Assembly (NCBI GenBank): GCA_963713955.1
Contig: OY970216.1
Coordinates: 296,850 to 360,849, forward strand
Direction of reading: 5' to 3'
DNA from: an uncultured bacterium
Lineage (GTDB): Bacteria > Patescibacteriota > Minisyncoccia > UBA6257 > GWB1-50-10
Length of the DNA: 64,000 bases
Shown here: piece by piece, positions 7,435 through 60,155 of the stretch
Layout of the letters: every line of letters starts with the position of its first letter
Numbering within the stretch: position 1 is the stretch's first letter
Program-made: the position numbers and the translations under genes
Notes under the pieces: model-generated
Told to the model about the DNA's origin: nothing
Seen by the model: only the letters and a program-made list of their open reading frames with translations
Database searches by the model: none

Positions 7435-7556
7435 ATAAATTCTCCTCACTCATCCTGGGAAATTGACGGAATTTATCAAACTCAACCCCGACCTGTTGGT
7501 CGGGGGATTCAGACAGTGATAAATTCCTATTTCCTGCGTCTTCGCTCGGGAATTTA
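7435..7556 (+). repeat. family-1 structured intergenic element, diverged copy
   Basis: Same architecture as 19916-20046 and 60027-60155: stem ggaatttatca/tgataaattcc encloses the conserved aactcaacc, a short hairpin ccgacc-tgtt-ggtcgg, and gggattcagaca; begins 48 nt after the PAP2 stop. Confidence 0.5.
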
Positions 7557-7667
7557 TACCCTCGCCTCAACAAAGCCCGCTCAAGACAGAACTCTTTCTC
7601 CTTGTTTTTTTCATTAGTGGAGCCACTTCGATTGATTAGCCATTAGGTTAATCAGAAATTTCGTATT

Positions 7668-8870
7668 CTATTTCTGCGCATTATAGATAGCTTGAATCTC
7701 AGCGGCGGATAAAACTCTACTATAGACGCGGACGTCATCAATTGAATAAATTGGGCTGCCAGAACCTCCACCGCCACCAATCGTCGCGTCCTGCTGACTA
7801 GGTACCCAAGAATTACTAATACTTCCAGAACCGACAAGCGCGCCGTTCACATAAACATAGCCCTTTTGATTAACTGTATCCCAAGCGACCGACACGAATA
7901 ACCAGGTATTGTTTGACATGCTTGGCTGCACAGCGAATTCATAGGCAGCTGAATCTTGGAATACGGCCTGCATGCTTCCTGGAGCACCATAATTATTTCT
8001 TACAAACAGATGGCTACGCGTATTATCCCAACCATCAAAAATAGGCCAACCAACGTTATTCCAACTGGCGGAATTCACCCAAAGGGTCAGCGTGCCCCTT
8101 TGAGGAAAACTTGAATTATACAAAGTGGGAATATTTACATACTGACTCGAGCTATTAGCATTAATAGTTAAACATCCGTTAACCTTGCAACTGGGAGCCC
8201 ATGTAGGGTTGCCTACCACCGTCCCCCCATTCCCATTCCCTGATCTGTCCCCCGGGTCTCCATCCAGCGGCCACCATCCTACTAATCCCTCACTCCTTCC
8301 AATAAGGGATAGGTCAGAACCGATCTCATACTTCCCAGGATCATAGCCTTGGTCTTGGGATGCAGTAGAATTGAGGTATTTCTGTGATTCCAAGGCACTG
8401 GACAAGGCATAGGAGCCTCCTGATACGTAGGTATAGTAGAGTCCAGTGCTTGTGGTATTCGTAGGGTCTATCGGGAGCTTGGATAAAGGGGATCCTGATG
8501 AAATAAGGGTGAGATTCACGGGAATCCAGCCTGTTCCGTCTACTCTTGTTGAGGAAGAGCTTGGAACACAGTGATAGGCCCATCCTGGGGGAGGAGAAGA
8601 CAGTCCCAGATTGGCACAGGTGGATGTGGTATCGGGAACTGATACGTAGAGGGTATTCGGAGTCCCTAAGGACTGGGTATATTGATCTGCTTGGAAGAGG
8701 GATAAGGCACTATTCAGGGCTGAAAGATCAGAGAGCCTGGTTGAATCTCTTCCTTGAGCTAAGAGCTGGGCGGGATTCAAGACCAAGACGACGGCGGTTG
8801 CAAGGACGGCTAAGATCGCGATCACGACCAGGAGCTCGATCAGAGTAAAAGATTCCCGAGAATGAGGCAT
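7668..8870 (-). CDS. type IV pilin-like protein (prepilin-type N-terminal domain) with C-terminal LamG/ConA-like domain, paralog 1
   Basis: SFTLIELLVVIAILAVLATAVV prepilin motif; C-terminal ...DDVRVYSRVLSAAEIQAIYNAQK typical of LamG_3 domains; start set at ATG 8868-8870 (MPHSRESFTLIEL). Confidence 0.75.
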   Translation of the reverse strand: MPHSRESFTLIELLVVIAILAVLATAVVLVLNPAQLLAQGRDSTRLSDLSALNSALSLFQADQYTQSLGTPNTLYVSVPDTTSTCANLGLSSPPPGWAYHCVPSSSSTRVDGTGWIPVNLTLISSGSPLSKLPIDPTNTTSTGLYYTYVSGGSYALSSALESQKYLNSTASQDQGYDPGKYEIGSDLSLIGRSEGLVGWWPLDGDPGDRSGNGNGGTVVGNPTWAPSCKVNGCLTINANSSSQYVNIPTLYNSSFPQRGTLTLWVNSASWNNVGWPIFDGWDNTRSHLFVRNNYGAPGSMQAVFQDSAAYEFAVQPSMSNNTWLFVSVAWDTVNQKGYVYVNGALVGSGSISNSWVPSQQDATIGGGGGSGSPIYSIDDVRVYSRVLSAAEIQAIYNAQK

Positions 8871-9252
8871 TTGATTGATTATAACATTATCTAGGGAAGG
8901 TTTGTTCTTCCTGCCCACCCAAAAGTTTTCCACAGGAGCTATTGACCTGAATTCCTTTTCCGGATATGATTATAAAAATGCAAAACTTAAGGTCGAATTC
9001 GATATTGTTCATCATCATTGCCCTCCTCCTTAGGAAGGGGACTTTGAGTTTTGCTAGAGCATAGAATTGTAAAGGAGAAATCGAATCAAAACTTAAAGCC
9101 CCCGACCGAAAGTCGAGGGCTTTTCGTTTCGGGACCCGAGATTTGTCCACTTGGCAAGCAGGTAAATCTTGGGCTCTGAAGGAAACTTCATTGTCCCAAG
9201 AGTTCTTTGTCAAACTGTTCACTTAAACAAAACACTAAGAAGGAGAAAAGTG

Positions 9253-9774
9253 ATGATTGCGATGACTACTGGCATCCAACCACGTATCGTCATTTCTGGA
9301 GAGACAGAAGACGGTATTGTTGGGAAAATACTTAACTATATAGCCGATCCTCCCCCTCCGGAACAGCGTCGTTATACGAAAAGGTTCTTTGGGTTGTGGC
9401 GTGAAGGAATATGTATGGGGAAGATTGTGAAACAAAAGAGAACGAGGAATGGTGGGGTTGAGGGGACTTTCGATGTTGCCCTTGAGATAGGCACAAGAGA
9501 GGCAGAGAAGAATATTTCCTTAGGCATCCTTTTGAGGGAAGTCCCAGGACTGAAGTTTAGCTTAAAGGATATGAGGAGAGACTCTTCAGGTTGGGTAGAG
9601 TTGCATATCGGCGGGGATGTAGATCGCCGGAAAATACCAAACATTGTGGACCTTATACTGGCTACTTATGTAACCAATCATAAGGAGACGCATCCTGTAG
9701 TGCCCGACAAGCCCGGAGGAAAAATTCAACGGTTTTGTTCCACCAGTGCTGGCAATCCTTTTGCGACGAAGTGA
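9253..9774 (+). CDS. hypothetical protein
   Basis: ORF 9169-9774 trimmed to the internal Met (MIAMTTGIQ); no family recognised; lies after an AT-rich intergenic stretch. Confidence 0.3.
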   Translation: MIAMTTGIQPRIVISGETEDGIVGKILNYIADPPPPEQRRYTKRFFGLWREGICMGKIVKQKRTRNGGVEGTFDVALEIGTREAEKNISLGILLREVPGLKFSLKDMRRDSSGWVELHIGGDVDRRKIPNIVDLILATYVTNHKETHPVVPDKPGGKIQRFCSTSAGNPFATK

Positions 9775-9897
9775 ACCGATTTTTTCTCTCGCGGGTAAAA
9801 AATACTCCGAGGGAACTTCTAACGAAAGCTGTGGTGACCCCGCAGCTTTTTTCCTTTTATTTGCCCAGAGGTGAAGAGTGATTTAAAATATTTGCAT

Positions 9898-10377
9898 ATG
9901 CAGAAAAATAAAACAAAAGCAGTGGCGTTAGTCGTCGTGTTAGTGGTAATAGTAGTCGCCCTGATCATCACGTTATCGGGGAGCAAAAATACGAATAACC
10001 AAGCGAATCAAAATCAAATGACGAACACAAATTCAAACGACAACCTTCAAGTAACGGATGAAGTCATGGGAACAGGCACGGAGGCGGTTGCGGGAGATCT
10101 CGTGACGGTGAACTACGTGGGAACGCTCGCGAATGGAACAGTCTTCGACGCGTCCGCGAGCCACGGGAATCAAGGTTTCACGTTCCTCTTGGGAGCGGGG
10201 CAAGTGATCAAGGGATGGGATGAAGGCGTTGCCGGCATGAAGGTCGGCGGCAAGCGGAAGCTTGTGATTCCCTCAGACCTGGCCTATGGGTCAAACGGTA
10301 TTCCGGGAGTGATCCCGCCGAACTCGACTTTGATTTTCGAAGTGGGGCTTTTGTCCGTTAAGCAAGCGGGGCAGTAA
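9898..10377 (+). CDS. FKBP-type peptidyl-prolyl cis-trans isomerase, membrane-anchored
   Basis: VTVNYVGTLANGTVFDAS...GAGQVIKGWDEGVAGMKVGGKRKLVIPSDLAYG is a canonical FKBP domain; N-terminal TM helix plus N/Q-rich linker. Confidence 0.8.
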   Translation: MQKNKTKAVALVVVLVVIVVALIITLSGSKNTNNQANQNQMTNTNSNDNLQVTDEVMGTGTEAVAGDLVTVNYVGTLANGTVFDASASHGNQGFTFLLGAGQVIKGWDEGVAGMKVGGKRKLVIPSDLAYGSNGIPGVIPPNSTLIFEVGLLSVKQAGQ

Positions 10378-10386
10378 ACTCATGAA

Positions 10387-11655
10387 ATGAAAAATTCTCT
10401 TTTAGGGAGAATAAAGAATTTAGGCAAAGACGTCGGTCCCGGCGTTATCACCGGCGCCGCCGACGATGATCCGTCTGGGATCTTGACCTACCTCCAGTCG
10501 GGCTTTTTGTACGGCTTCAAGATACTCTGGATGGCCGTTCTCGCCTTGCCCTTCATGATTTCGATTCAGGAAATGGCGGGAAGGATCGGCTATGTGACCG
10601 ACAAAGGGCTCATCAAAGTGATCAAGGACCACTATTCGAAGTGGCTCCTTTATTTCATCGCCGTCATTTCCGTCGTCGTCATAACCATGAACATCGGAGC
10701 GGATCTCCTCGCCGTCGGGACGGTTCTCGGGAATCTCATCCCCTTGCCCGTTCTTTTCTGGATTCCGTTCGTTGCGCTTGCCATCTTGGCTTTCACGATT
10801 TTCCTTTCCTATCCAAAATTCGCTAGAGTCCTCAAATGGCTGACCTTATCTCTTTTCTTCTACGTCGCAACCGTATTCACCGTAAAACTTGACTGGGGCG
10901 CGGTTCTTCAGGCAACTTTCCTGCCGCATATCGTCTTCGACAAAGATTTCATTCTGCTCTTTGCGGCGTTCTTCGGGACCACCATTTCGCCGTATTTGTT
11001 TTTCTGGCAGGCCGACGAGGAAGTCGAGGAGCGAGACGAAGTGAAAAGCGAAAGGAAACTCAAAAGGTTCCTCGTGACCAAAAACGAGCTGAAGCACATG
11101 CGAAAAGATACGGCTCTCGGGATGGTTTTCTCGGAAATCATAACGTGGTTCATCATCGTCGCGGCAGGCGGCCTCGCAGCCGTGAAGGGCCCGGCAGTCA
11201 TAGCGAATTTCAATCAGGCTTCCGCGGTCCTCCGGCCCCTCCTCGGCGAATGGGCTTTCGTCGTTTTCGCTCTGGGGATCGTGGGGACCGGCCTTCTCGC
11301 GATACCGGTGCTTTCGGGAAGCATCGGTTACATGCTCTCCGAAATATTCAACTGGACGGAAGGAATGAACAAAACGTGGAGAGAGGCAAGAAGTTTTTAC
11401 CTCGTCATAACGGCGGCAACTATTTCGGGGGTTGTCATGATGCTTTTAGGAGTTGACCCTATCGCGGCTCTGATTTACACGGCCGTTTTTTACACCGTCA
11501 TCACGCCGCCCATCGTTTACGTGATACTGAAAATCGCAAACAACAAGACGATCATGCGCGACAAGGTAAACGGACCTCTCACGAACGTTTTCGGGTGGCT
11601 GACGTTCGCTTTCGCGGTCATCGTTGTCGGTACCTACCTTTTCTCATTGTTCTGA
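10387..11655 (+). CDS. Nramp-superfamily divalent cation transporter (MntH/NRMT-like)
   Basis: N-terminal GPGVITGAADDDPSGI resembles the Nramp GPGxxxxxxxxDPGN motif; about 11 TM segments. Confidence 0.55.
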   Translation: MKNSLLGRIKNLGKDVGPGVITGAADDDPSGILTYLQSGFLYGFKILWMAVLALPFMISIQEMAGRIGYVTDKGLIKVIKDHYSKWLLYFIAVISVVVITMNIGADLLAVGTVLGNLIPLPVLFWIPFVALAILAFTIFLSYPKFARVLKWLTLSLFFYVATVFTVKLDWGAVLQATFLPHIVFDKDFILLFAAFFGTTISPYLFFWQADEEVEERDEVKSERKLKRFLVTKNELKHMRKDTALGMVFSEIITWFIIVAAGGLAAVKGPAVIANFNQASAVLRPLLGEWAFVVFALGIVGTGLLAIPVLSGSIGYMLSEIFNWTEGMNKTWREARSFYLVITAATISGVVMMLLGVDPIAALIYTAVFYTVITPPIVYVILKIANNKTIMRDKVNGPLTNVFGWLTFAFAVIVVGTYLFSLF

Positions 11656-11740
11656 TGTTCGTTCGCCGAACCATTGCGACAAAAACCCCTTCGTCGTCGG
11701 AGGGGTTTTTGTGTCAGGTAGTTGTTGTGGAAGATACCCT

Positions 11741-12085
11741 TTATAGCTTGCTTCTCGGAAGCCACGCAATGGCGCGGGTGGCGGTTACATCGGCTGCGTT
11801 GCGCCCCAGGAGGCTGTATACTTTGACCGGAAAACCGTCCTTGAGATCGGCGAGTAAGTAAGTATTACTCTTCGCGAGAACTTTTGTGTCGGAAACCGCG
11901 GTTGCGAGGTATGCCTGGTTGTTTCTCGCCGCGGTGAGCATCACGCCATTTGGTGTCGTGTTGAAGGCAGATTCACTTTCACGGGGTGCGGGAACGGTTG
12001 ACCACGCAAACGCGAAAGAAGAACTGAGGAGCATGCCTGCGATCAAGCTGCCGGTTCCGATGATTGCTTTCGTTTTACGATACAT
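11741..12085 (-). CDS. hypothetical small secreted protein
   Basis: Signal-peptide-like N-terminus (AIIGTGSLIAGMLLSSSFAFAW); no family. Confidence 0.35.
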   Translation of the reverse strand: MYRKTKAIIGTGSLIAGMLLSSSFAFAWSTVPAPRESESAFNTTPNGVMLTAARNNQAYLATAVSDTKVLAKSNTYLLADLKDGFPVKVYSLLGRNAADVTATRAIAWLPRSKL

Positions 12086-12200
12086 GGTTGAAGTCTGCTT
12101 ATACCCCCTCCGGCCTTGTTGACGGTGGATTTCACCAGCGTCTTTAGGAAAATACGCCGGTTGCCGGTCGAATGTTACAGAATGCCTGGCAACTCCCCAT

Positions 12201-12258
12201 ACCTAAATGAGAGTGAAAAATATGACGCCAACAAGAAGACGTTGCTCTCATTTAGGTG
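12201..12258 (+). promoter_or_regulatory. 13-bp perfect inverted repeat (acctaaatgagag / ctctcatttaggt) with 32-nt loop in the hisS 5' leader
   Basis: Read directly from the sequence; ends 22 nt upstream of the hisS ATG. Confidence 0.3.
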
Positions 12259-12279
12259 TAGGGGTAAAATTAATACGTT

Positions 12280-13617
12280 ATGGCAAGCAGATTAAAACCG
12301 AAATTGCCTTCCGGATTCAAGGATTACTTGCCGGATGAAGAAATAAGGAGAAGCGAAATGCTCGATGTGATCAAGAGAAACTTTGAGCTGTTCGGGTTTT
12401 TGCCGCTCGATACGCCTGCCGTGGAAGAGGAGAAAACGCTCACGGGAGGCGATCCGGAATTCAAAAAACAGATATTTAGAATCAAACGGGAAAGCGGTGC
12501 CGAAAATCTGGCGCTCCGTTTCGATCTCACGGTTCCTTTGGCTCGCGTGGTGTCTCTCTACGCCGGCAAGATAACTTTCCCCTTCAAGAGGTACCAGGTG
12601 GGAAGCGTGTGGAGAGGGGAAAAGGCGCAGGCCGGCCGATTCAGGGAATTCCTCCAGTTCGACGCCGACATCGTGGGATCAGCGAGCGTTCTCGCGGATG
12701 CCGAAATCATAGCCCTCATGAACCAGGTCATGCTTTCCCTGGGGTTCCAGAATTTCCTCATAAAAATAAGCAACCGGAAAGTGTTAAGCGGACTCCCGGA
12801 ATATGCTGGGTTTTCTCGCGGGAAATTGGATGCCGTTCTGAGAGTCGTCGACAAATTGGATAAAATCGGGGAAGCCGGCGTCTCAAAAGAGCTTACCTCA
12901 AAGAACGGGTGCGGCCTTTCAAAGCAAGAGGCCCGAGCGGTAATGGGTTTCTTCGGCCTGAGGGCAAAGAACAATTTCGAGGTTTTGCGTCTCGCGGGAG
13001 AAAAACTGAGAAGCGGGAGTTCGAAGAAAGGCCTTGCCGAGATGGAAGAACTCGTGGGTCACCTCGAGGCGCTCGGCGTTCCGGCTGAGCGGTGGGCGTT
13101 CGATTTCGCGACGGTCAGGGGTCTTGCGTACTACACAGGTTTTGTTTTTGAAACGATTCTCCTTGATCTGCCCGGGATCGGCAGCGTTTTTTCCGGCGGA
13201 AGGTACGATAACCTGATTTCGAATCTCGGGGGATCAAGCTTACCGGCCGTCGGCGTTTCAGTCGGAGTGGATCGAATGTTTTACGCGATGACGGAGCTCA
13301 GAATTTCCGCCGAAGGGGGAAGAAAAGCGAAAGTCTTGGTTCTGAATTTCGACGAGAAAACATGTCGGGATGCCGAGAAAACCGTTTCCCTTCTCAGGGA
13401 AAACGGAATTCCGTCGGAAATTTACCTCGGGAACGAAAAAGGGCTGAAAGGACAAATCTCATACGCCCTCAAAAACAACTACGCACTCGCCGTCATGGTG
13501 GGCGCGGACGAAGTTTCGAAGGGCATCGTGAGTATTAAAAGTTTCAAGGCCTATAAACAGTTTGGGGTGAAACGGGAGAATTTGGTGTCCGAGGTGAAGA
13601 AACTTTTGGAACAGTAG
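12280..13617 (+). CDS. hisS: histidyl-tRNA synthetase
   Basis: Class II aaRS motif 2 (RFREFLQFDADIVG) and the HisRS-specific GGRYDNL motif; C-terminal anticodon-binding domain present. Confidence 0.85.
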   Translation: MASRLKPKLPSGFKDYLPDEEIRRSEMLDVIKRNFELFGFLPLDTPAVEEEKTLTGGDPEFKKQIFRIKRESGAENLALRFDLTVPLARVVSLYAGKITFPFKRYQVGSVWRGEKAQAGRFREFLQFDADIVGSASVLADAEIIALMNQVMLSLGFQNFLIKISNRKVLSGLPEYAGFSRGKLDAVLRVVDKLDKIGEAGVSKELTSKNGCGLSKQEARAVMGFFGLRAKNNFEVLRLAGEKLRSGSSKKGLAEMEELVGHLEALGVPAERWAFDFATVRGLAYYTGFVFETILLDLPGIGSVFSGGRYDNLISNLGGSSLPAVGVSVGVDRMFYAMTELRISAEGGRKAKVLVLNFDEKTCRDAEKTVSLLRENGIPSEIYLGNEKGLKGQISYALKNNYALAVMVGADEVSKGIVSIKSFKAYKQFGVKRENLVSEVKKLLEQ

Positions 13618-14253
13618 ATGGAAAAGGAAAACGCTCTTGCCGAAATAAAGAAGGAATTGGAGGAGAACGAGAAGTTGCCGCTTTTCGGAACCAATCTGGT
13701 TTTCGGCGAAGGGGATCCTTCTGCGAAAATCATGTTCATCGGCGAGGCGCCGGGATTCTACGAAGACCGGGAACGGAGGCCGTTCGTCGGGAGAGCCGGA
13801 AAACTTTTAGATCGGCTGATCGCGGACATCGGAATGCGGCGCGAGGACGTTTACATCACGAATATCGTAAAACGCCGACCGCCCGAGAACCGCGATCCGC
13901 TGCCGGAGGAACTGGAGGGTTACCGGCCGTACCTTGCGCGGGAAATTGAAGCCGTTAATCCGAAAATCATAGCGACCCTGGGGAGATTTTCGATGAATTA
14001 TTTTTTGCCGGAAGGGAAGATATCGCGGGATCAGGGAAAGGTTTTCTGGTGGGGAGAGCGGATCGTGATGCCACTCTACCATCCGGCGGCGGCACTCCGC
14101 TCGACTTCTGTTCTTGACGATTTGGAGGAGAGTTTCAAAAAGCTTAAAGCCGTCGCCGTAAAATTCGAGGAACTCTTGGAGCAGAAGAGAAAGAAACCAC
14201 CGAGCGAAATTCCGGGAGAGATTAAAAAAGAAGAGCAAAAATCACTCTTTTAG
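13618..14253 (+). CDS. uracil-DNA glycosylase, family 4
   Basis: GEAPG motif (FIGEAPGFYEDRERRPFVGRAGKLL) and the C-terminal HPAAALR-type motif of family 4 UDGs. Confidence 0.85.
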   Translation: MEKENALAEIKKELEENEKLPLFGTNLVFGEGDPSAKIMFIGEAPGFYEDRERRPFVGRAGKLLDRLIADIGMRREDVYITNIVKRRPPENRDPLPEELEGYRPYLAREIEAVNPKIIATLGRFSMNYFLPEGKISRDQGKVFWWGERIVMPLYHPAAALRSTSVLDDLEESFKKLKAVAVKFEELLEQKRKKPPSEIPGEIKKEEQKSLF

Positions 14254-14268
14254 GCCTATAATAGAGGC

Positions 14269-17895: not shown

Positions 17896-19875
17896 ATGGT
17901 GGAAAGCGGAAAAGAAATAATCAGAAGCTTGAATGAAGAGCAGCGCGAGGCGGTGGCGGCGAAGAACGGCCCGATTCTCGTCATCGCCGGTCCCGGTTCG
18001 GGGAAAACGCGGGTCATCGAATATCGGGTTTTGAATTTGGTCCGAAGCGGCGTCGATCCGCGGCGCATTTTGCTTTTGACCTTTACGAGAAGGGCGGCGC
18101 GGCAGATGCTTGATCGGGCCGCCTTCCACGACGAGCGGTGCAAGCAGGTCGAGGGCGGGACTTTCCATTCCTTCGCGTACAAACTTTTGAGAGCCGAGGG
18201 GGAGAAACTGGGCTTGAGAAAGAATCTCTCCGTTTTGGACGAAAGCGACGCGGAGGAGCTCGTCGGGAAAATCCTCGCGGCTTCCGGATTCCGGGAGGGA
18301 GACAAAAAGGAAGCCTTCCCCAAAAAAGACACGCTGAAAAAAATCTTCAGCTTAGCCGCCAATAAAAACCTTGGGCTTGAAGGCGTGATCGAGAGATACT
18401 TCTCCCACCTCCGCGATTTCCTGGCGGAGATAAAAGAAATCGGCGACGACTATACCCGCGAGAAGAAAGAAAAAGGCTATGTGGACTTTGACGATCTTCT
18501 TCTTTACGCGCGGGATGTTTTGTCCCTGGGCGGCGTGGGAGAGAAAATCGCTTCGCGATACGAATTCATAATGGTTGACGAGTACCAGGACACCAACCCT
18601 CTGCAGGGTGAGATAACGTATCTCTTGGGGAAAAGGACGGGAAACGTCCTCGTGGTCGGGGACGATGCGCAGAGCATCTATGGATTCCGCGGCGCTTCGC
18701 ATAAGAATATCATGGAGTTTCCGGAAATGTTCCCGGGAACGAAGATCGTGAAGCTCGAGGAAAACTACCGGTCGACGCAAACGATCCTTGATTTGTCGAA
18801 CGAGGTTCTCGCGAACATGGCTGAGAAATTCCAGAAAGACTTGGTTTCGGCGAAGGGCAAAACCGGCGAGAGGCCCAAAGTTCTCTATTTCGGAAACTCC
18901 GAGGATGAGACCGAATGGATCGCCGAAAAAGTTTTGTCCCTCGCGAGTTCCGGCACTCCCTTGCGGGAACAAGCGGTCCTTTTCCGCTCCACGTACGTTT
19001 CCATCATGCTCCAGGCGGAACTTTCGAAAATGAAGATTCCCTACAAGGTTTTCGGGGGATTGAAATTTTACGAGATGGCTCATGTCAAGGACTTCATGGC
19101 GTACGCGCGGGTCATCGCGAATTACCGGGACGAGATCAGCTGGTCGAGGATCCTCGGCATGTTGCCGGGCGTCGGCAAAAAAACCGCGGAAGCGCTCTGG
19201 AGCGAGATGGAAAATTCCGGCGATCTGGATCAAGCTCTTTCGGCTCTGGAAAAATTCGGATTAAGGACCAGAAATTCCGTCCCGATGCTGAAGCTAAAAG
19301 AAGCTCTGTCCGAAGTTTCGGCGTCGCGGGCGAGCGTTTACGACGCGCTCGGCCGGATCATGGATTTCTACCTGCCGTTCTTCCGGGAGAAATTCGACGA
19401 TTGGCCGACGCGACTCCAGGATCTGGAGACACTGAAAGATCTGTCGGAGAATTACGACGATCTGGATTCTTTTCTCGCCGATCTTTCGATAGAAATACCG
19501 GAGGATCGCGGCGAAGAGGAAAAAGATTTTCTGACTCTGTCGACCATCCATTCGGCGAAAGGCTTGGAATGGAACACGGTCTATCTTTTGGGAGTCGCCG
19601 ACGGCGTTTTGCCGTCCAAACGATCCATGGATTTCGAGGAAGACATTGAAGAAGAAGGAAGACTGCTCTACGTCGCAATAACCAGGGCGAAAGAGAGACT
19701 GTATTTGTTCTTTCACTTGGAAGAAGGACGGGGAGCATATTTCGGCCAGAGGATTTCCCGATTTCTCGAGCCGCCGAACGTCTTCAACGCGCTCTCCCAC
19801 GAGGATTTATCGGGGTATGGACTCCGGGACGAGGTCAAATATGACGATGAGGATGAGGGAATAGAGTTGGAATAG
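17896..19875 (+). CDS. UvrD/PcrA/Rep-family DNA helicase
   Basis: Walker A VIAGPGSGKTR; helicase motifs; start trimmed to ATG 17896 (MVESGKEII); 660 aa. Confidence 0.85.
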   Translation: MVESGKEIIRSLNEEQREAVAAKNGPILVIAGPGSGKTRVIEYRVLNLVRSGVDPRRILLLTFTRRAARQMLDRAAFHDERCKQVEGGTFHSFAYKLLRAEGEKLGLRKNLSVLDESDAEELVGKILAASGFREGDKKEAFPKKDTLKKIFSLAANKNLGLEGVIERYFSHLRDFLAEIKEIGDDYTREKKEKGYVDFDDLLLYARDVLSLGGVGEKIASRYEFIMVDEYQDTNPLQGEITYLLGKRTGNVLVVGDDAQSIYGFRGASHKNIMEFPEMFPGTKIVKLEENYRSTQTILDLSNEVLANMAEKFQKDLVSAKGKTGERPKVLYFGNSEDETEWIAEKVLSLASSGTPLREQAVLFRSTYVSIMLQAELSKMKIPYKVFGGLKFYEMAHVKDFMAYARVIANYRDEISWSRILGMLPGVGKKTAEALWSEMENSGDLDQALSALEKFGLRTRNSVPMLKLKEALSEVSASRASVYDALGRIMDFYLPFFREKFDDWPTRLQDLETLKDLSENYDDLDSFLADLSIEIPEDRGEEEKDFLTLSTIHSAKGLEWNTVYLLGVADGVLPSKRSMDFEEDIEEEGRLLYVAITRAKERLYLFFHLEEGRGAYFGQRISRFLEPPNVFNALSHEDLSGYGLRDEVKYDDEDEGIELE

Positions 19876-19915
19876 CTCCCTGTTTCTCATTCGTTCAGTA
19901 AAGTTCTCGGTTGCT

Positions 19916-20046
19916 AAAATCCTCCTCGCTCCTCGTCGGAATAAAGCCGCAAAATATCGAACTCAACCTCATCCGCCTCATAATCGGCGGATTCGGGATT
20001 CAAACATCCGATATTTTGCTCATTCCTTCCTCATCGCTCGGGGATC
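19916..20046 (+). repeat. family-1 structured intergenic element, copy 2
   Basis: About 90% identical to 60027-60155; stem gcaaaatatcg(19949-59)/cgatattttgc(20009-19); central hairpin tccgcc-tcataatc-ggcgga; starts 41 nt after the helicase stop. Confidence 0.55.
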
Positions 20047-20137
20047 TTGGAGCAACTTCGAACAAATTCACTTATGAGGAACAGGGAGCTCCATCCTTGC
20101 TTTTTGACAAGAAGCGGGGAGCTGGTAAAATGGAGAC

Positions 20138-22837: not shown

Positions 22838-22838
22838 A

Positions 22839-35647: not shown

Positions 35648-35718
35648 CGGGGAGGAGTATGCCGGTAGTACACACGCTTCGGGTGCGTGCAGACCGGGTT
35701 CGATTCCCGGCTCCCCGA
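35648..35718 (+). tRNA. tRNA-Pro (anticodon CGG), short D-arm
   Basis: Hand-folded: acceptor cggggag/ctccccg, anticodon stem cacgc/gcgtg, loop uuCGGgu (G37), T-arm ccggg-ttcgatt-cccgg; 71 nt; D-stem only 3 bp, so confidence is moderate. Confidence 0.6.
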
Positions 35719-35729
35719 CAAATAAAAGT

Positions 35730-52892: not shown

Positions 52893-52915
52893 GAATCGAC
52901 CTTTGATGCTAGTGT

Positions 52916-53108: not shown

Positions 53109-53627
53109 ATGGGAGGCTTTGAAGAAGTGGGTTCACAAAAATTAGAGCAGGACAAGTTTGCGTCTTTCCGAGAGCGAGCTAAAGATGTCGCTACTGTCGG
53201 AGAGGGATTAATGAATATAGATGCTGCTCACGAAGGGACATTTGCGGATCAAAGACGATTGGAGCAGCTAGCCACAACCCATGAAGAAGAAAGCAGACAA
53301 CTTAACCGGACGGGAGGGCAGCAAAGATCTTTCGCCGAAAGTGCTGAAAGATTGCGTGAGGCGGCTCGAAACAACAAGGAGTGGATAGAGGCTAGATTAA
53401 ATATCCTTTCCACTGAGGAAAGGCAGAGTTACTTGGCAAAAGAGCAGGATCTCGTCGCCCGTTTTGAGGCAACGCAAAAGAACTTAGACAATTACAAGCC
53501 GAGCGATGAACCGGAGCTTATTCGAAATATGCCGGTTCGAAAAAAATTAGAGATCGAGTTCAACGCCGCCAAAGAAGCACTCCGAATACACGAGGCGAGT
53601 TTGATTGAACTGAGTCAGGGGATTTAA
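53109..53627 (+). CDS. hypothetical coiled-coil protein
   Basis: 172 aa, charged and helical; no family. Confidence 0.35.
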   Translation: MGGFEEVGSQKLEQDKFASFRERAKDVATVGEGLMNIDAAHEGTFADQRRLEQLATTHEEESRQLNRTGGQQRSFAESAERLREAARNNKEWIEARLNILSTEERQSYLAKEQDLVARFEATQKNLDNYKPSDEPELIRNMPVRKKLEIEFNAAKEALRIHEASLIELSQGI

Positions 53628-53849
53628 TCTTATCCTCACGATTCTGGATGCTTTGAAGACAGCTGAATATACTGGCAACTTCCCAGAAAACAAGAACACC
53701 CACCTTGTAAGGTAGGCATTCTGGGCAATCTCAACAAGTTGTCACAAGCTTCAATGTTTTCGACAAGTAATACTTTTATATTGACAGGTGTGTAGTTCGG
53801 TTGTAGCCTTACTGCATCATCTTTCGCAATTTTAAAAAGGAGCGAGTTA

Positions 53850-54095
53850 ATGCAAAGACTAGTTTCGGTTACAGAGAGTGTATGCGAATCCATGAAGGTA
53901 CCCTTGTGGGTAATGGAAGCTGCCGTTGGGAAGCAAGTGCCGGCTGAGGAAGGACCGAACGAGGAATTGTGGCTCAAGAAAATCGATTTGATCTCGGTTC
54001 TTGAAAAGAAAAGTGAGCGTCAGGCGGCAGACTGGATCCGCAGGAATGTAAACCAAGATACCATTGTAGTGCCTCAAGTATTACTTCAGGCGTAG
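53850..54095 (+). CDS. hypothetical small protein
   Basis: 81 aa. Confidence 0.3.
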   Translation: MQRLVSVTESVCESMKVPLWVMEAAVGKQVPAEEGPNEELWLKKIDLISVLEKKSERQAADWIRRNVNQDTIVVPQVLLQA

Positions 54096-54193
54096 GCGTA
54101 CACAGAGCAGGCCCAGGCAGTTGTAGCCGGACCTCCCTTATTTTATACCCCCGATCTCATGAGGTGGATATTTTTGCCGAAGTGGGCAACTTG

Positions 54194-54265
54194 TTGCGGG
54201 GGCAGGATTCGAACCTGCGACCTCCGGGTTATGGGCCCGACGAGCGACCGCTGCTCCTCCCCGCG
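54194..54265 (-). tRNA. initiator tRNA-fMet (anticodon CAT)
   Basis: cgcgggg 5' end with a C1-A72 mismatch; three G-C pairs closing the anticodon stem (tcggg-cccataa-cccgg); nearly colinear with my recollection of E. coli tRNA-fMet. Confidence 0.8.
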
Positions 54266-54333
54266 GTTCATAAAACAAATGAATTATACTTGTAAAGAGG
54301 GTATAAGTCAATTTATAATTGAATAAATCATTT

Positions 54334-54407
54334 GGCTGGGTAGCTCAGTCGGTTAGAGCGTGGCCCTCATAAAGCCGAGGTCGTGGGTTCGAATCCCACC
54401 CCAGCCA
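54334..54407 (+). tRNA. tRNA-Met or tRNA-Ile2 (anticodon CAT)
   Basis: Acceptor ggctggg/cccagcc, D-arm gctc-agtcggtta-gagc, anticodon loop cuCAUaa, T-arm gtggg-ttcgaat-cccac; 74 nt. Confidence 0.75.
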
Positions 54408-54429
54408 CAAAAATGTATATCATAAAAAT

Positions 54430-55410
54430 ATGAATTTAAAGGAAATAGAAAACAAATCGGCGCTGGAGATAGAAAAGGCGAAAGACGCCCGTGAGTTGGA
54501 AGCCGCAAAGATCAAATATCTCGGGAGAAACGGGTTCCTTTCGAAGTTCATGAAAACAATACCTTCGCTTCCCTTGGAGGAACGGAAGGTCGTCGGAAAG
54601 GAGGCGAACGGGGTCAAGAATAATATCGAGAGATTTCTCATTGCGAAAGCTGGTTCGTTCAAGGAAAAGGCGACGGAGGAATTTTTCGACGTCACGCGGC
54701 CGGGCAAGAAGATCAAGCTGGGCCATGAGCATCCTTTGGCCAAAGTCGACGAAGAGGTAAGAAGAATATTCACCTCGATGAATTTTTCCGTAGTTTGGGG
54801 TCCCGAGCTCGAAACCGAGTATTACAACTTTGACGCCTTAAACATTCCCGCTAACCATCCGGCGAGGGATATGTGGGACACGTTCTGGGTGAAAACGTGG
54901 ACGGACAAATTGCTTCTCCGGACGCACACGAGTCCCGTCCAGGTGCGGTACATGGAGAAACACGAGCCGCCGTTCCAGATCATCGTCCCCGGCCGCGTTT
55001 TCCGGTACGAAGCGACTGACGCATCGCACGAAATAAATTTCTACCAGGTGGAGGGGCTCATGGTGGGGCCGAACGTCACGCTGGCCAACTTGAAATTCGT
55101 CATCGAGAAATTTTTCGAGAAGTTTTTCGGTGAATCCGGGAGACGGATAGAATTCAGGTATCGGCCGAGCTATTTCCCGTTCACCGAGCCGAGCCTGGAG
55201 GTCGATATCAAGATCGGCGGCAAGTGGCTTGAAGTCATAGGGGCGGGGATGGTCCATCGGAACGTTTTCGACGCCGTCCGCTACAACCCGGATACAGTGC
55301 AGGGCTTCGCGTTCGGGATGGGCCTCGACCGCCTCGCGATGATAAAGTACCAGATCCCGGACATTCGCATGTTCTACGAGGGTGACTTGCGGTTCATTCA
55401 TCAATTTTAA
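54430..55410 (+). CDS. pheS: phenylalanyl-tRNA synthetase alpha subunit
   Basis: Class II motifs ...FRYRPSYFPFTEPSLEVDI... and GAGMVHRNV; 326 aa. Confidence 0.9.
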   Translation: MNLKEIENKSALEIEKAKDARELEAAKIKYLGRNGFLSKFMKTIPSLPLEERKVVGKEANGVKNNIERFLIAKAGSFKEKATEEFFDVTRPGKKIKLGHEHPLAKVDEEVRRIFTSMNFSVVWGPELETEYYNFDALNIPANHPARDMWDTFWVKTWTDKLLLRTHTSPVQVRYMEKHEPPFQIIVPGRVFRYEATDASHEINFYQVEGLMVGPNVTLANLKFVIEKFFEKFFGESGRRIEFRYRPSYFPFTEPSLEVDIKIGGKWLEVIGAGMVHRNVFDAVRYNPDTVQGFAFGMGLDRLAMIKYQIPDIRMFYEGDLRFIHQF

Positions 55411-55415
55411 AAGCA

Positions 55416-55754
55416 ATGGAAACGCCCAACGGAAAAATTGAAGATGAGAGGTTTCATGAACTCCAAAGATTCAGAGAAGAGATTGAGGCTATCAAGAAAA
55501 GCACTCCCTCCCTCTCCGAAGTCAACGTTGATGAATTGACGGATGAGGACATGGAACTCTGGAAACTTAAAGAAAGCGGAAATGCAACCAGGGAGGCTAT
55601 CGATGCACATAGAAAATCGATCTCTAATGAGAAAAGGATTTTACGGGAAGAAATTCCTAGGAGTCGCAGTTTATTCTTTCAATATGTCGCCAATGAAGTG
55701 AGCCAAAGGATAACAAGAGAGGAGTTGGCCAAAAGGAGAAGAAATAAAAAATAA
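55416..55754 (+). CDS. hypothetical charged/coiled-coil protein inserted between pheS and pheT
   Basis: 112 aa; K/E/R-rich; no family. Confidence 0.4.
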   Translation: METPNGKIEDERFHELQRFREEIEAIKKSTPSLSEVNVDELTDEDMELWKLKESGNATREAIDAHRKSISNEKRILREEIPRSRSLFFQYVANEVSQRITREELAKRRRNKK

Positions 55755-55763
55755 AGTGGAACG

Positions 55764-57680
55764 ATGAAATTTTCGTACCCATTGATAAAAAAATTGGTCC
55801 CGGGGGTGAAAAGCAAAGGTCAGATCATTGATACCCTGAATTTCCATTCCTACGAGACCGAGGACGCGCCGGGCGACACGTTCGAGGTCAAACTGCCGGC
55901 GAACCGATTTTCCGATTCAGCGTCCCACATCGGCGTCGCGCGGGAAGTTGCTACAGCCCTGAACCTCGGTTTCAAAGAAAGTGCGGGGGAGAAAGTAAGA
56001 CCGGGGAAAACAAAACCGGATTTTTCCGTCACCGTTGCCGAGAAAAAACTCTGTCCGCGATACGTCGCCTGGAGGTTTAATAATATTAAGGTCAAAGATT
56101 CACCGGCCTGGCTGACGCAGATCTTGAAGGATTGCGGACTCCGCCCGATAAACAACGTCGTCGACATTATGAATTACGCGATGCTTTTGACGGGCCAGCC
56201 GCTCCACGCTTTCGATTTCGATAAGCTCGAGGGAGGCGAGGTGAAAATCAGAATGGCGAAGGGCGAAGCGATGACCACCATCGACGGACGTGCTTTGAAG
56301 CTCGGGAAAAATGTTTTGGTCATAGCAGACAAGAATCGGCCGATCGCCCTCGCGGGCATCAAAGGCGGCAAGGATACGGAGGTTGACGAGAAAACCAAGA
56401 GAATTCTCGTCGAAGCGGCAAGCTTCGAACCTTCCTTGATATACCGGACGTCCAAGGAATTGGGGCTTTCAACGGACGCATCCCAGCGATTTTCACATAA
56501 CCTGAGCTTGGAGTTGCCGCTCTCGGGAATCGCCAAAGCCGCTGAGATGCTCGTGGATCTTGCCGGGGCGCGGCCCGGTTCCAGATTCGATTCTTATCTG
56601 AAACAAATCCCGAAGAGAATACTCAAATTTGACATAGAGAAGTTCAACAAATTCATCGGTACGGATTTGAGCGGCAAGGAAGCAACCGCGTACTTGAAGC
56701 GGCTCGGCTTCAAAAGCTTGCGCGGAGACGAGTGGGAAGTGCCACCGTTCCGGACGGACGTCGAGAATCACGAAGATCTTTTCGAAGAAGTAGCCCGTAT
56801 GTACGGGTACGGCAGGATTCCGGCGAAGGCGCCGGAAGTGGCACTCTCGCCGTCGGGCACCGAAGATCGCGTTATCCTGAAGGATAAAATAAGACATCTC
56901 CTCCAGGGGTTCGGATTCGATGAAGTTTATACGTATTCCATGATTTCGGTGCGGGATGCCGGGGGGAAGGGAAGGAAAACGGATAATTTGTATGAAGTGT
57001 CGAATCCGATAAGCGAAGAATTCCAGTATCTGAGGCCGACGCTTGAAGTCAACCTGGCAAAGGTCGTGGCGGACAATTTCAGGTTTTCCGACACGGCGAA
57101 GATTTTTGAAATTGGGAACACATTCAGAAAGATAGGCAAGGAAACTGGCGAGCAAATGTCCTTCGGGGTCGTTTTTGCCGATAAGAAGGAAGAAAGATTT
57201 TTCGAGCTCAAAGGGATCCTCGACGAGCTTTTCAAGAAGGTCGGTCTCACTGATTATAACTTCGAGGAAGGCGGGAATTTTTTGAAACTTGAATCGAACG
57301 GAGAAATTTTTGGCTTTCTAAAAAATGCCAAGGTGGAAGGAGGGGAAATGTCCTTCGCCGAGATTAACTTTGATAAGCTGGCTGAGCTGGTAGAAGGCGA
57401 ATTTGAATATGAGCCGCTGCCTAAGTATCCTTCGGTGGTGCGGGACATCTCCATCCGCGTGCCCGGCGGCGCGAAGATAGGCGACATCATTCAGGAAATA
57501 CAGGACTCGAACCTGAAACTTATAGAGGATGTTGATCTGGTGGATGAGTATAAATCGAACATGACACTCAGGATCGTATTCCAATCTGAAGAAAGAACGT
57601 TGACGGCGGAAGAAGTGAATAGGGAGATGACTAAGATCCAAAAAACGCTGGAGACGAAGTTTGGGGCCACGATACGGTGA
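55764..57680 (+). CDS. pheT: phenylalanyl-tRNA synthetase beta subunit (short form)
   Basis: B3/B4 and B5 domains plus C-terminal anticodon-binding-like domain; 638 aa, lacks the long N-terminal tRNA-binding domain of typical bacterial PheT. Confidence 0.85.
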   Translation: MKFSYPLIKKLVPGVKSKGQIIDTLNFHSYETEDAPGDTFEVKLPANRFSDSASHIGVAREVATALNLGFKESAGEKVRPGKTKPDFSVTVAEKKLCPRYVAWRFNNIKVKDSPAWLTQILKDCGLRPINNVVDIMNYAMLLTGQPLHAFDFDKLEGGEVKIRMAKGEAMTTIDGRALKLGKNVLVIADKNRPIALAGIKGGKDTEVDEKTKRILVEAASFEPSLIYRTSKELGLSTDASQRFSHNLSLELPLSGIAKAAEMLVDLAGARPGSRFDSYLKQIPKRILKFDIEKFNKFIGTDLSGKEATAYLKRLGFKSLRGDEWEVPPFRTDVENHEDLFEEVARMYGYGRIPAKAPEVALSPSGTEDRVILKDKIRHLLQGFGFDEVYTYSMISVRDAGGKGRKTDNLYEVSNPISEEFQYLRPTLEVNLAKVVADNFRFSDTAKIFEIGNTFRKIGKETGEQMSFGVVFADKKEERFFELKGILDELFKKVGLTDYNFEEGGNFLKLESNGEIFGFLKNAKVEGGEMSFAEINFDKLAELVEGEFEYEPLPKYPSVVRDISIRVPGGAKIGDIIQEIQDSNLKLIEDVDLVDEYKSNMTLRIVFQSEERTLTAEEVNREMTKIQKTLETKFGATIR

Positions 57681-57701
57681 AGATGATGTTATAATGAGGG
57701 G

Positions 57702-59027
57702 ATGATGCCCCCTCATCTCCAATCTTCCTTCACCCTCATCGAACTCCTGGTCGTGACCCCGATACGAAAGGCGTTCCACGCCTTCGTACGGGGCAAGTCG
57801 CCATCCAATCCCAAGGCTTCTTTCACGTTAATTGAACTTCTCGTCGTCATTGCTATTCTCGCAGTCCTCGCGACCGCCGTCGTCCTCGTCCTGAACCCCG
57901 CCCAGCTCCTTGCCCAAGGAAGAGACTCCACAAGATTGTCTGATCTTGCAGCCTTGAACAGTGCCCTCTCCTTGTTCCAAGTTGATGCCTATACCCAGTC
58001 CCTGGGGACTCCGAATACAGTCTATATATCTGTTCCTGACAATGCTTCCTCTACCTGTGGATCTCTTGGTCTTCCTTCCTTGCCTTCCCCCTGGGCCTAT
58101 CACTGTGTTCCCGCCTCTTCTTCCACGAAGGTAGACGGAACAGGCTGGATTCCTGTGAATCTCACCCTTATATCGTCAGGATCCCCTTTATCCAAGCTCC
58201 CGATTGATCCCGTGAATACCACAAGCACTGGACTCTACTATACCTACGTATCAGGAGGCTCCTATGAGATTACTTCAGCTATGGAGTCTCAGAAGTACCG
58301 ATTAGGAGGTTCTACTGATGCAGTCTCTACCGATGGAGGCCCGTATCCTGATTTGAGGGAAATAGGCTCCAATCTCTCTCTCCTCCCCATAGACTATGGA
58401 GATACGAGTCTTGTGGGATATTGGCCCTTCAATGAAGGGACGGGCCTAACTGCCTATGATGCGAGTGGACATGGGAATAACGGGGCGTTAAGCGCTTCTC
58501 CTCCGGCTTGGATCACAGGGAAATTAGGTGGGGCCTTGAGCTTTAACGGGAGTAATAACTATGTGAGTTACGCTTCAAGTAGTGGCAATGTCTACGGGCC
58601 GATTACGGTCGCTGCTTGGGTGTACGTCAATCCAAACAGCACTTATCAATTTGTAATCCAACGGGGAACAAGCGGAGCCAACGTTAACTGTCAGTATTCT
58701 TTGTATGTTGTTACTACCAATGTTTTGAGATTCAGTATCGATGCCGGAGCCAATGAGTACCCCGCAAATTCTTCGGTGCTGACCGCAGGATGGTACTATG
58801 TTGTTGGCACGTGGACTGGTTCTGGTCCGGCCGCCATCTATATCAATGGTGTGAACGCCGGCAACAGCGCCTCTGTTTCTGGGACTCAAAATAGCATCAG
58901 TAATTTTATTATGGGCAATAGTGGAGGGGGCGGTTACCCGTTTAATGGTTATCTTGACGATGTCCGCGTCTACAATAGAGCTTTATCCGCCGCCGAGATT
59001 CAGGCGATCTACAACGCCCAAAAATAA
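57702..59027 (+). CDS. type IV pilin-like protein with C-terminal LamG/ConA-like domain, paralog 3 (duplicated prepilin leader segment)
   Basis: SSFTLIELLVV-TPIRKAFHAFVRGKSPSNPKA-SFTLIELLVVIAILAV; C-terminal DDVRVYNRALSAAEIQAIYNAQK. Confidence 0.7.
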   Translation: MMPPHLQSSFTLIELLVVTPIRKAFHAFVRGKSPSNPKASFTLIELLVVIAILAVLATAVVLVLNPAQLLAQGRDSTRLSDLAALNSALSLFQVDAYTQSLGTPNTVYISVPDNASSTCGSLGLPSLPSPWAYHCVPASSSTKVDGTGWIPVNLTLISSGSPLSKLPIDPVNTTSTGLYYTYVSGGSYEITSAMESQKYRLGGSTDAVSTDGGPYPDLREIGSNLSLLPIDYGDTSLVGYWPFNEGTGLTAYDASGHGNNGALSASPPAWITGKLGGALSFNGSNNYVSYASSSGNVYGPITVAAWVYVNPNSTYQFVIQRGTSGANVNCQYSLYVVTTNVLRFSIDAGANEYPANSSVLTAGWYYVVGTWTGSGPAAIYINGVNAGNSASVSGTQNSISNFIMGNSGGGGYPFNGYLDDVRVYNRALSAAEIQAIYNAQK

Positions 59028-59100
59028 GTATCAAGTATAAAGTAGAATGTATAAAGTATAATTTGCGCTTTGAATTTTTGGTTTTTCTCTACTTGATACT
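59027..59100 (+). terminator. conserved 3' hairpin of pilin paralog 3 (agtatcaagtat ... tacttgatact)
   Basis: Same 11-bp stem as at 29589-29643, with a longer loop. Confidence 0.45.
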
Positions 59101-59130
59101 TTCTACTTAATATTAGCTACTCGCTGTATA

Positions 59131-59985
59131 ATGAGATTAATGAGAAAATTCGCCTTCATTTCCATTCTGATTTGCGGAATTTCATTCGCTTACCTCTCTT
59201 ATGCCGCTTCTCCTGTCGTCACCGTTTCCAATACTTACCCAATTCAAGGTGACACGGTTCTCGTGAACGTTTCCGGGGTCGCGAGCGCGCCCAAGACGGC
59301 AACTCTCGGGACTGAGACGGCGAATTTTTTCCCGTACGGCGGGAAATACGCCGCCGTAATCGGCCTCAAGGTTACGGCCGCGGCCGGCTGGCAGAGAATC
59401 ACGCTCAAATTTTCCGACGGTTCGGCCGTCACGAAATGGATCGACGTTCTGAAGAAAAAAATCACCGTGGAAAATCTCGCTGTTCCGCCGGAGCTCGGCG
59501 TGACGCCGACGGAACTCGTCCAAGAGATCACGGACGAGAACGCGGCGCTGAACGACATCGTCAATACGGTAACCCCGCAAACTTACATAACCAAAGGTTT
59601 TGGTTTGCCCCTGGCGAACAACACGTATATCACTGATCGTTACGGCATTCTCCGCAGGACGGGCGATCAGGAAATCTGGCATCTGGGAACTGATTTCGCC
59701 GCCGCTTCGGGGAGTATCGTTGCGGCCGTGAATTCCGGCGTCGTCAGATTCGCGACATCGACTGTGTCCTACGGGAACACGGTTATCGTGGATCACGGGG
59801 AGGGAATTTATTCCATGTATCTTCATTTGTCGACGATAATCGCCCGGGCGGGCGATACGGTGAAAAAGGGGCAGGTAATAGGTCTTGTCGGGAACACCGG
59901 GTTCTCGACCGGCGAGCACCTGCACTTGTCGATCAAGGTAAACGGCATTTCCGTAGATCCCCTGCGATTCGTGCGGGTGTTTTAG
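59131..59985 (+). CDS. M23-family (LytM-like) metallopeptidase
   Basis: HLGTDFAA...GNTVIVDHGEGIYSMYLHLS...GNTGFSTGEHLHLSI are the M23 HxxxD/HxH motifs. Confidence 0.85.
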   Translation: MRLMRKFAFISILICGISFAYLSYAASPVVTVSNTYPIQGDTVLVNVSGVASAPKTATLGTETANFFPYGGKYAAVIGLKVTAAAGWQRITLKFSDGSAVTKWIDVLKKKITVENLAVPPELGVTPTELVQEITDENAALNDIVNTVTPQTYITKGFGLPLANNTYITDRYGILRRTGDQEIWHLGTDFAAASGSIVAAVNSGVVRFATSTVSYGNTVIVDHGEGIYSMYLHLSTIIARAGDTVKKGQVIGLVGNTGFSTGEHLHLSIKVNGISVDPLRFVRVF

Positions 59986-60026
59986 GAGAAGGCAGCCACT
60001 CCCTCATCGGCGAGTTTTTCTTTCGA

Positions 60027-60155
60027 ATAAATCCTCCTCGCTCCTCGTCGGAATAAAGTCGCAAAATATCGAACTCAACCTCCCCGCCTCATCGGCGGGT
60101 TCGGGATTCAAACAAGCGATATTTTGCTCATTCCTTCCTCGTAGCTCGGGGATTT
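60027..60155 (+). repeat. family-1 structured intergenic element, copy 3
   Basis: Stem gcaaaatatcg(60061-71)/cgatattttgc(60117-27); central hairpin cccgcc-tcatc-ggcggg; starts 42 nt after the M23 stop. Confidence 0.55.

Follow-up and report, generated by a model that had tools for sequence, protein, structure and literature searches.

We describe here a family of hairpin-forming repeats encountered in a 64,000-nt stretch of contig OY970216.1 (assembly GCA_963713955.1, positions 296,850 to 360,849 of the forward strand; hereafter "the window"), which comes from an uncultured bacterium of the Patescibacteriota. The window holds three intergenic copies of the element, each a long hairpin that we call a rod, and related rods occur in other Patescibacteria and in Proteobacteria; together they form what is apparently, on the evidence of sequence searches, an undescribed cross-phylum repeat family. 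We tentatively favour the explanation that the rods are a non-autonomous element resembling repetitive extragenic palindromes (REPs) and their doublets (REPINs), recognised as a single-stranded hairpin through a conserved core. This reading follows from paired stems that are free in sequence, an invariant core, a strand-specific fold, near-identical bursts and inverted clusters, presence and absence between genomes and the lack of any coding capacity.

The core of the element consists of two boxes that flank a small hairpin. The pattern AACTCAACC-N(8-35)-GGGATTCARACA matches the window at the three cores listed below and nowhere else, with no match in shuffled sequence, and a covariance model run with its filters off returned the same three with E values of 1e-16 to 1e-18, as against 0.65 for the next match; no fourth copy was found by this search of the 64-kb window. 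An initial annotation, made from the window alone, had reported exactly these three + strand copies, and the covariance-model search that it proposed recovered them together with further, diverged family members outside the window. It had given the element a length of about 125 nt and a start 41-48 nt after the stop codon of an upstream gene. Comparison of each left arm with the reverse complement of the right arm, together with folding, instead gives unbranched imperfect hairpins of 210-220 nt, in which the 125 nt are the inner part and the supposed gap of 41-48 nt is the outer arm; in all three window copies the rod starts 0-4 nt after the stop codon or overlaps it. The annotated identity of about 90% between copies 2 and 3 agrees with the 91.5% that we obtain over 129 nt. 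Domain calls likewise bear out that the genes upstream of copies 1, 2 and 3 are unrelated, encoding a PAP2 protein that also carries LssY_C, a UvrD-type helicase and an M23 peptidase, respectively. The copies are spaced 12 and 40 kb apart within the 64 kb, and three of the largest non-tRNA gaps between genes in the window are due to them, most spacers there being shorter than 150 nt. Their parts are as follows.

7385-7387: stop codon TAG of the PAP2/LssY_C gene upstream of copy 1; the rod begins 4 nt later.
7392-7601, - strand: copy 1, whole rod hairpin, 210 nt, a single unbranched fold.
7392-7404 with 7589-7601: copy 1, outermost stem, GGAGAAAGAGTTC paired with GAACTCTTTCTCC, from the comparison of arm symmetry.
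7468-7527: copy 1, core-adjacent stem ("stem B"), GGAATTTATCA (7468-7478) paired with TGATAAATTCC (7517-7527).
7479-7515, + strand: copy 1, core, made up of AACTCAACC (7479-7487), the apical hairpin CCCGACC-TGTT-GGTCGGG and GGGATTCAGACA (7504-7515); covariance model 55.9 bits, E 3.9e-16.
19874-20090, - strand: copy 2, whole rod, 217 nt.
Ends of 19874-20090: copy 2, outermost stem, AGCTCCCTGTTTCTCAT paired with ATGAGGAACAGGGAGCT, overlapping the AG of the helicase stop codon TAG (19873-19875).
19949-19959 with 20009-20019: copy 2, stem B, GCAAAATATCG paired with CGATATTTTGC.
19960-20006, + strand: copy 2, core; covariance model 58.5 bits.
59983-60202, - strand: copy 3, whole rod, about 219 nt.
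Ends of 59983-60202: copy 3, outermost stem, AGGAGAAGGCAGCCACTCCC paired with GGGAGTGGCTGCCTCTCCT, overlapping the M23 peptidase stop codon TAG (59983-59985).
60061-60071 with 60117-60127: copy 3, stem B, GCAAAATATCG paired with CGATATTTTGC.
60072-60114, + strand: copy 3, core; covariance model 63.2 bits.

The spread of the family was followed by scanning one genome per species (596 Gb) for the exact core. This listed at least 113 loci, as against about 15 expected by chance in 596 Gb by our own arithmetic; the fetched database loci bear numbers prefixed with L, and the family counts given below rest on the 113 or more that were listed. At least 106 have both boxes flanking a small hairpin within a long inverted repeat, and about 7 of the 113 listed matches have no hairpin context. 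Listed hosts include, in the Patescibacteria, Saccharibacteria, many Paceibacterota lineages, Gracilibacteria and Peribacteria and, in the Proteobacteria, Methylophilaceae, Pusillimonas, other Burkholderiales and marine Gammaproteobacteria (Halioglobus, Pseudomaricurvus, Exilibacterium, Oceanicoccus and Pseudohongiella). Palindrome ends placed by dynamic programming over-extended at many loci and were left out of the statistics; about 20 cleanly bounded copies measure 194-229 nt. Pseudomaricurvus carries at least 7 copies, about 97% identical, with a common minimal unit of 222-236 nt. Conservation rises toward the centre of the element: copies from one genome are alike in their inner parts, and their outermost 4-20 bp are unique yet paired (L028, L057/L058, window copies 2 and 3), while outer arms are conserved inside subfamilies (L057/L058/L094; window copy 2 with L060). 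In the Proteobacteria, at least 12 loci hold diverged extra copies, detected with the covariance model a few hundred nucleotides off and in the opposite orientation.

Other collections returned nothing comparable. Rfam 15, which the initial annotation had suggested consulting, matches no family in the window except tRNAs, gives no match at the elements even at E<=10, and is equally silent at 13 other family loci. The 7 window tRNAs called by ARAGORN or Rfam all lie outside the elements, and the likeness of GGGATTCAAACA to a T-arm complement goes no further than that 12-mer. The core has no match among 2.9 million viral contigs and none in plasmids searched with BLAST, and the literature, searched for the core sequence and by topic, yielded nothing relevant.

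The pairing of the element is held while its sequence drifts. In an alignment of 103 family sequences, from which the covariance model was also built, each of the 11 pairs in the core-adjacent stem shows changes in both partners; covariation there scores 0.377, which none of 500 shuffles reaches, compared with 0.157 after shuffling, and every slid control scores lower. The pairing-preserving change first noticed in the window is therefore real and family-wide, and the central hairpins of the three window copies do differ in sequence with pairing kept, as had been annotated. Copy 1 differs from copies 2 and 3 at several positions of the 11-bp stem and still pairs perfectly. This perfect pairing stands, but the view that the stem had been replaced within one genome does not: judged by their sequences, copy 1 and copies 2/3 are two subfamilies, each also present in other genomes. 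Over 205 nt, copy 2 matches a copy in another Saccharibacteria genome (L060) at 82% identity, and the nearest relatives of copy 1 are L050, L005 and L013.

Pairing extends into the core itself. Among the diverged copies found with the model, an A-U pair inside the apparent core loop becomes G-C in seven, and the C.U next to it becomes U-A or U.G. The R of GGGATTCARACA lies opposite the C of AACTCAACC, giving C-G or C.A on the strand first described and G-C or G.U on its complement. On the complement the core reads 5'-CUGUYUGAAUCCC-(variable hairpin)-GGUUGAGUU-3', an almost continuous irregular helix that possibly holds a tandem G.A step. Most of the stem is thus free in sequence provided that the arms pair, and a small asymmetric core near the tip is held almost constant across phyla. 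Known motifs were compared with this core by our own reading, and the K-turn, T-loop, sarcin-ricin and C/D box each seem to fail on register or on the covarying A-U pair. A likeness to the Neisseria uptake sequence (GTCTGAA) and to words of the Ec86 retron RNA was taken as coincidence.

The structure had been annotated on the + strand of the window, but the fold that looks selected is that of the complement, and five measures agree in indicating this. Minimum free energies are lower for the complement in copy 1 (-97.3 vs -85.8 kcal/mol on the + strand), copy 2 (-93.8 vs -79.8) and copy 3 (-105.9 vs -95.2), and RNAfold makes it the more stable strand in 89 of 109 listed copies, by a mean of 5.5 kcal/mol. 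Isolated mismatches, counted where two Watson-Crick pairs lie on each side, are on the complement of the listed copies more often of G.U type than of A.C type (61 vs 38) and more often of G.A type than of C.U type (41 vs 14), and the core-adjacent stem of the listed Patescibacteria copies has, on that strand, 21 G.U against 8 A.C. CCGA-(hairpin)-GAGG, a tandem G.A context, is found on the complement of most Patescibacteria copies, where the other strand has U.C/C.U. Apical loops of the listed copies comprise 14 GNA triloops and 4 CUUG loops on the complement vs a single GNA on the described strand. In the Proteobacteria the region beside the core is an internal loop rather than a stem and is uninformative on strand. 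No apical loop was classified as a GNRA tetraloop, and our own reading found one, GAAA in L075. Given how hairpin stability depends on the loop, loops rich in GNA and poor in GNRA weakly favour a DNA hairpin over an RNA hairpin.

Comparison with related genomes shows that the element is gained or lost between them and multiplies within genomes, and that it lands in very short spacers and leaves the neighbouring protein unchanged. Orthologues of the M23 peptidase are 65-73% identical within a clade of related genomes. The spacer between this gene and MJ0711_N, a convergent pair followed by secD, measures 19 nt in L122 and 37 nt in L124 and L125, with no rod; in the window the same spacer is 384 nt long and contains one, and the peptidase ends at the same residues. 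The empty sites of L122 and L124 hold no hairpin of the kind that a pre-existing terminator would form, and the assembly with the empty site L122 bears a family member elsewhere (L098). At the second locus, a helicase orthologue in L116 (75% identity) is followed 16 nt after its stop codon by a sigma-70-like promoter and no rod. In the window, a rod lies between the helicase stop codon and the equivalent promoter, which belongs to a glutaredoxin gene, and ends 13 nt before its -35 box (20104). The covariance model detected no family copy in about 77 kb from four relatives. In L060 (3300-3560), a copy 2 subfamily member sits inverted, 14 nt upstream of the orthologous glutaredoxin promoter, and behind a different, unrelated upstream gene; the rod shared by L060 and the window therefore stands at a synteny break.

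Among the listed copies for which both neighbours were called, 31 lie between convergent genes, 39 between tandem genes (24 in sense and 15 in antisense orientation for the described strand) and 5 between divergent genes. The left neighbour is on the same strand in 61 listed copies vs 21. A sense 3'-UTR reading of this bias was rejected, as it mostly reflects avoidance of divergent promoter regions, with the tandem cases divided 24 to 15; the main context signal is avoidance of promoter regions, not strict sense orientation. As to terminator features, a T-run on the + strand directly follows the copy 1 rod (TTGTTTTTTTT, 7602-7612), those of copies 2 and 3 are weak or displaced, and a consensus scan calls no terminator at the rod ends. 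No promoter-like site was seen in the window for the better-folding strand.

Taken as a REP/REPIN-like element, the rod would be active as a single strand folded into a hairpin, more probably of DNA than of RNA. A structure-specific factor acting in trans and encoded elsewhere in the genome would recognise the core and copy or move the element, and after insertion the hairpin would join the 3' end of neighbouring transcripts, with a putative role as terminator or stabiliser. The factor is hypothetical because no enzyme recurs close to the copies: when 582 open reading frames within 3 kb of the copies at the 113 listed loci were clustered, neither a transposase, a recombinase, a reverse transcriptase nor any other family was found repeatedly.

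That absence of a linked enzyme is the chief of several points that weigh against the REP/REPIN-like explanation. Elements of the IS200/IS605 type use the lagging-strand template, but the orientation of the rods is unrelated to GC skew (mean 0.004 +/- 0.009, 94 listed loci). In the Patescibacteria a same-strand stop codon lies 80-87 nt before the core in 17 of 30 listed cases, vs 1 on the other side, and a rod that abuts a stop codon usually places the weaker, C-rich version in the mRNA of that gene; this asymmetry would also suit a role in the mRNA, and it possibly means that hairpins of great stability are selected against where they would start at a stop codon, or that the C-rich strand is put to use. 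Since the described strand is C-rich overall (C 3079 vs G 2319 in the listed copies), the excess of G-containing mismatches on the complement, and with it part of the strand asymmetry, could be compositional rather than the product of selection on folding. The empty sites come from relatives with about 70% protein identity, so that loss of the rod there is not formally excluded. Finally, the window flanks, the nearest relatives and the cleanly bounded copies reveal no consistent target-site duplication and no crisp element ends.

The most substantial competing explanation is that the rods are a structured RNA with a host function, either a cis-acting 3'-end element (in termination, blocking of 3' exonucleases or translation termination) or a small RNA whose conserved irregular helix binds a universal protein. 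A cis element would belong to the mRNA of the upstream gene or, if the complement is transcribed, to the 3' UTR of a convergent gene. In both versions the copies would have spread by duplication and gene conversion. Covariation in the stems and inside the core, the clearly better folding of one strand and the T-run after copy 1 would all suit such an RNA, as would the position of 70 of 75 listed copies at gene 3' ends or between tandem genes (the other 5 being divergent) and the Patescibacteria rod bases, which in 17 listed cases out of 30, vs 1 on the other side, coincide with a same-strand stop that lies 80-87 nt away from the core. Methylophilaceae copies moreover occupy conserved loci beside metH or hemB, where their apical hairpins covary. 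We nevertheless consider this explanation, though a serious competitor, less likely than the REP/REPIN-like one. Orthologues of the neighbouring genes in relatives lack the rod, and therefore these genes do not need it; the same slot can hold a rod in either orientation; and in most Patescibacteria cases the strand that folds better runs antisense to the gene abutting the rod, with no promoter-like site found for it in the window. Near-identical bursts and inverted clusters are typical of selfish repeats, the prevalence of GNA triloops and near absence of GNRA loops is unusual for a selected RNA, and there is no Rfam relative. The lineage-specific 3'-UTR regulatory RNA that the initial annotation had put forward fares no better, as the family spans distant phyla, is absent at the orthologous M23 and helicase loci of relatives with 70-75% protein identity and is inverted in the L060 slot. 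Of the three options offered there, which also included a small RNA family, a REP-like or MITE-like repeat (MITE, a miniature transposable element with inverted repeats) at gene ends fits best.

The position of the rods directly after stop codons also recalls the attC sites of integrons, and the rods might be single-stranded recombination sites, attC-like or similar to those of elements that hijack Xer, which a site-specific recombinase would bind on one strand and which mark points of DNA segment exchange and do not transpose. Like attC, a rod is an imperfect palindrome immediately after the stop codon of an open reading frame, conserves structure over sequence, and folds on the strand complementary to the upstream gene, as the attC bottom strand does; unpaired or irregular positions are essential in attC, which is reminiscent of the rod core. 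By our own reading ACTCAAC fits the attC R'' consensus RYYYAAC. The synteny break beside the glutaredoxin promoter in L060 and the window, and the inverted copies that bracket a 1.3-kb foreign-looking GC-rich segment in L028, are what exchange points might leave behind. But the ACTCAAC of the rods has no complementary GTTRRRY box and lies near the tip, where the conserved part of the rod is found, rather than at the base, where R'' and R' boxes are missing; even the longest attC sites reach about half the length of a rod; and the rods come with neither cassette arrays nor an integrase gene (intI) nearby, the window copies being 12 and 40 kb apart after housekeeping genes (PAP2, UvrD and M23). 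We regard this alternative as improbable. An ordinary cut-and-paste MITE derived from an insertion sequence (IS), with the arms serving as terminal inverted repeats that the parent transposase would bind in double-stranded form, strikes us as very improbable. Its attractions are the full-length inverted-repeat build, the many intergenic copies, their presence and absence between genomes and the TA found on both sides of the rod at L108, the only locus where this was seen. The arms, however, differ completely between copies of the same genome (copy 1 vs 2/3; L007 vs L009) and only the centre is conserved, which counts against a MITE because a transposase that binds the ends requires the reverse. 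The rods have no conserved terminal inverted repeats and no consistent duplication of fixed length, the strand asymmetry of mismatches and loops is unexplained for a double-stranded substrate, and around the 113 listed loci no IS was found whose ends match. The possibility named in the initial annotation, that the copies are the ends of a known IS or MITE with target-site duplications, thus found no backing, as neither a consistent duplication nor a parent IS was seen.

Measured against known repeats, the REP/REPIN-like explanation has both strengths and gaps. REPs, bacterial interspersed mosaic elements (BIMEs) and REPINs, which are associated with RAYT transposases of the Y1 HUH type, are, like the rods, non-coding, multi-copy extragenic imperfect palindromes that often lie between convergent genes. 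Clusters of alternating orientation (seen with the Proteobacteria rods), pairing that is kept as sequence drifts and a folded single strand as the presumed object of recognition are further likenesses. REPs, however, are 20-40 nt long and REPINs, built from two inverted REPs, about 100 nt, whereas the rod unit measures 200-230 nt and has a single, asymmetric core near its tip with no inverted second copy within the unit. Rod stems vary even within one genome, and one core spans Patescibacteria and Proteobacteria. What defines a REP is a short, imperfect palindrome whose foot carries a conserved tetranucleotide, and the RAYT gene is typically flanked by the repeats; no RAYT gene was found within 3 kb of any copy at the 113 listed loci. 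Correia elements (CREE) of Neisseria, ERIC/IRU of enterobacteria, and RUP and BOX of pneumococcus are MITE-like inverted-repeat units of 100-200 nt that are co-transcribed at gene ends, where they form long hairpins in the RNA; their positions likewise vary between strains, and they can affect termination or mRNA stability. They are confined to a genus or family, with conserved termini, variable centres and, for Correia, a duplicated TA, in contrast to the rods, in which the centre is conserved, the termini are free and no regular duplication was found.

Two accounts of how the rods arrived in their spacers were examined and dropped. A TA duplicated at stop codons can be made out for copies 1 and 3 only by counting the motif TTAGTGRRG as flank, and the idea was abandoned because TTAGTGRRG is a genome-specific repeat. 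Insertion into a pre-existing terminator hairpin was suggested by outermost stems that are unique and abut stop codons, but arms are conserved in subfamilies, T-runs are inconsistent and the empty sites are free of hairpins.

Several further features lie close to the rods. The full motif TTAGTGRRG-N(3-4)-TTCGATT occurs just to the right of rods 1 and 3 (7614-7633 and 60210-60227) and nowhere else in the window, copy 2 being without it; among all fetched loci it was found only in L114, from the same organism. The motif could represent another small repeat, or else a module added to the element. The spacer of copy 3 contains a second long-range hairpin (60276-60342), in which CAGATATACCTCGC (60276-60289) pairs with GCGAGGTATGTCTG (60329-60342), and the 37-nt spacer of the relative L124 includes a short palindrome, CAGATATATCTG. 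The M23-to-MJ0711_N spacer is a hotspot in relatives, with an IS3-family insertion (HTH_Tnp_1 and rve) that truncates MJ0711_N in L120 (10856-12516) and a 113-aa orphan open reading frame in L126 (2357-2864). The glutaredoxin promoter right after rod 2 (20104-20131) is a near-consensus sigma-70-type promoter (TTGACA, 16 nt, TG-TAAAAT), with equivalents in L060 and L116. A tRNA-Pro(CGG) is called by ARAGORN at 35651-35719, where the Rfam tRNA model is silent at its gathering score.

Larger arrangements are seen in other hosts. Members in the Methylophilaceae (e.g. L010, L017, L074 and L079) are embedded in a longer conserved non-coding block that has other hairpins too (e.g. AGTTACTTTCT...AGAAAGTAAC and GGCCTAAAGGC) along with partial inverted copies, and that looks like a BIME-type mosaic on the downstream side of metH or hemB. 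In a Liptonbacteria metagenome-assembled genome (L028, 1169-2891), two inverted copies (212 nt, 87% complementary) bracket 1.3 kb in which two blocks of 61% G+C stand out from a genome of about 40% G+C, with no plausible open reading frame and no Rfam match; the bracketed segment could be a structured RNA or cargo.

A bolder proposal, which we think somewhat unlikely, is that the rods are a new class of structure-addressed element. In it, an irregular helix of 21 nt, with covarying pairs flanking a possible tandem G.A step, would ride on a hairpin of free sequence, and a factor shared by Patescibacteria and several proteobacterial orders would read it on one strand. Such a factor could be a mobilising enzyme, as yet unrecognised, that is specific for single strands; alternatively it could be a universal host protein, with the rods serving as its decoy or sponge. 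On this view the element would have passed from phylum to phylum, possibly when competent, epibiotic bacteria took up DNA. The family could mark horizontal exchange between Patescibacteria and Proteobacteria. In practical terms, such rods interrupt assemblies of short reads and can pass for regulatory RNAs. The near-invariant core on a stem of free sequence provides a handle for finding the protein that reads it, in a widespread repeat family that is seemingly absent from Rfam and the searchable literature and inhabits genomes thought too streamlined for such repeats.

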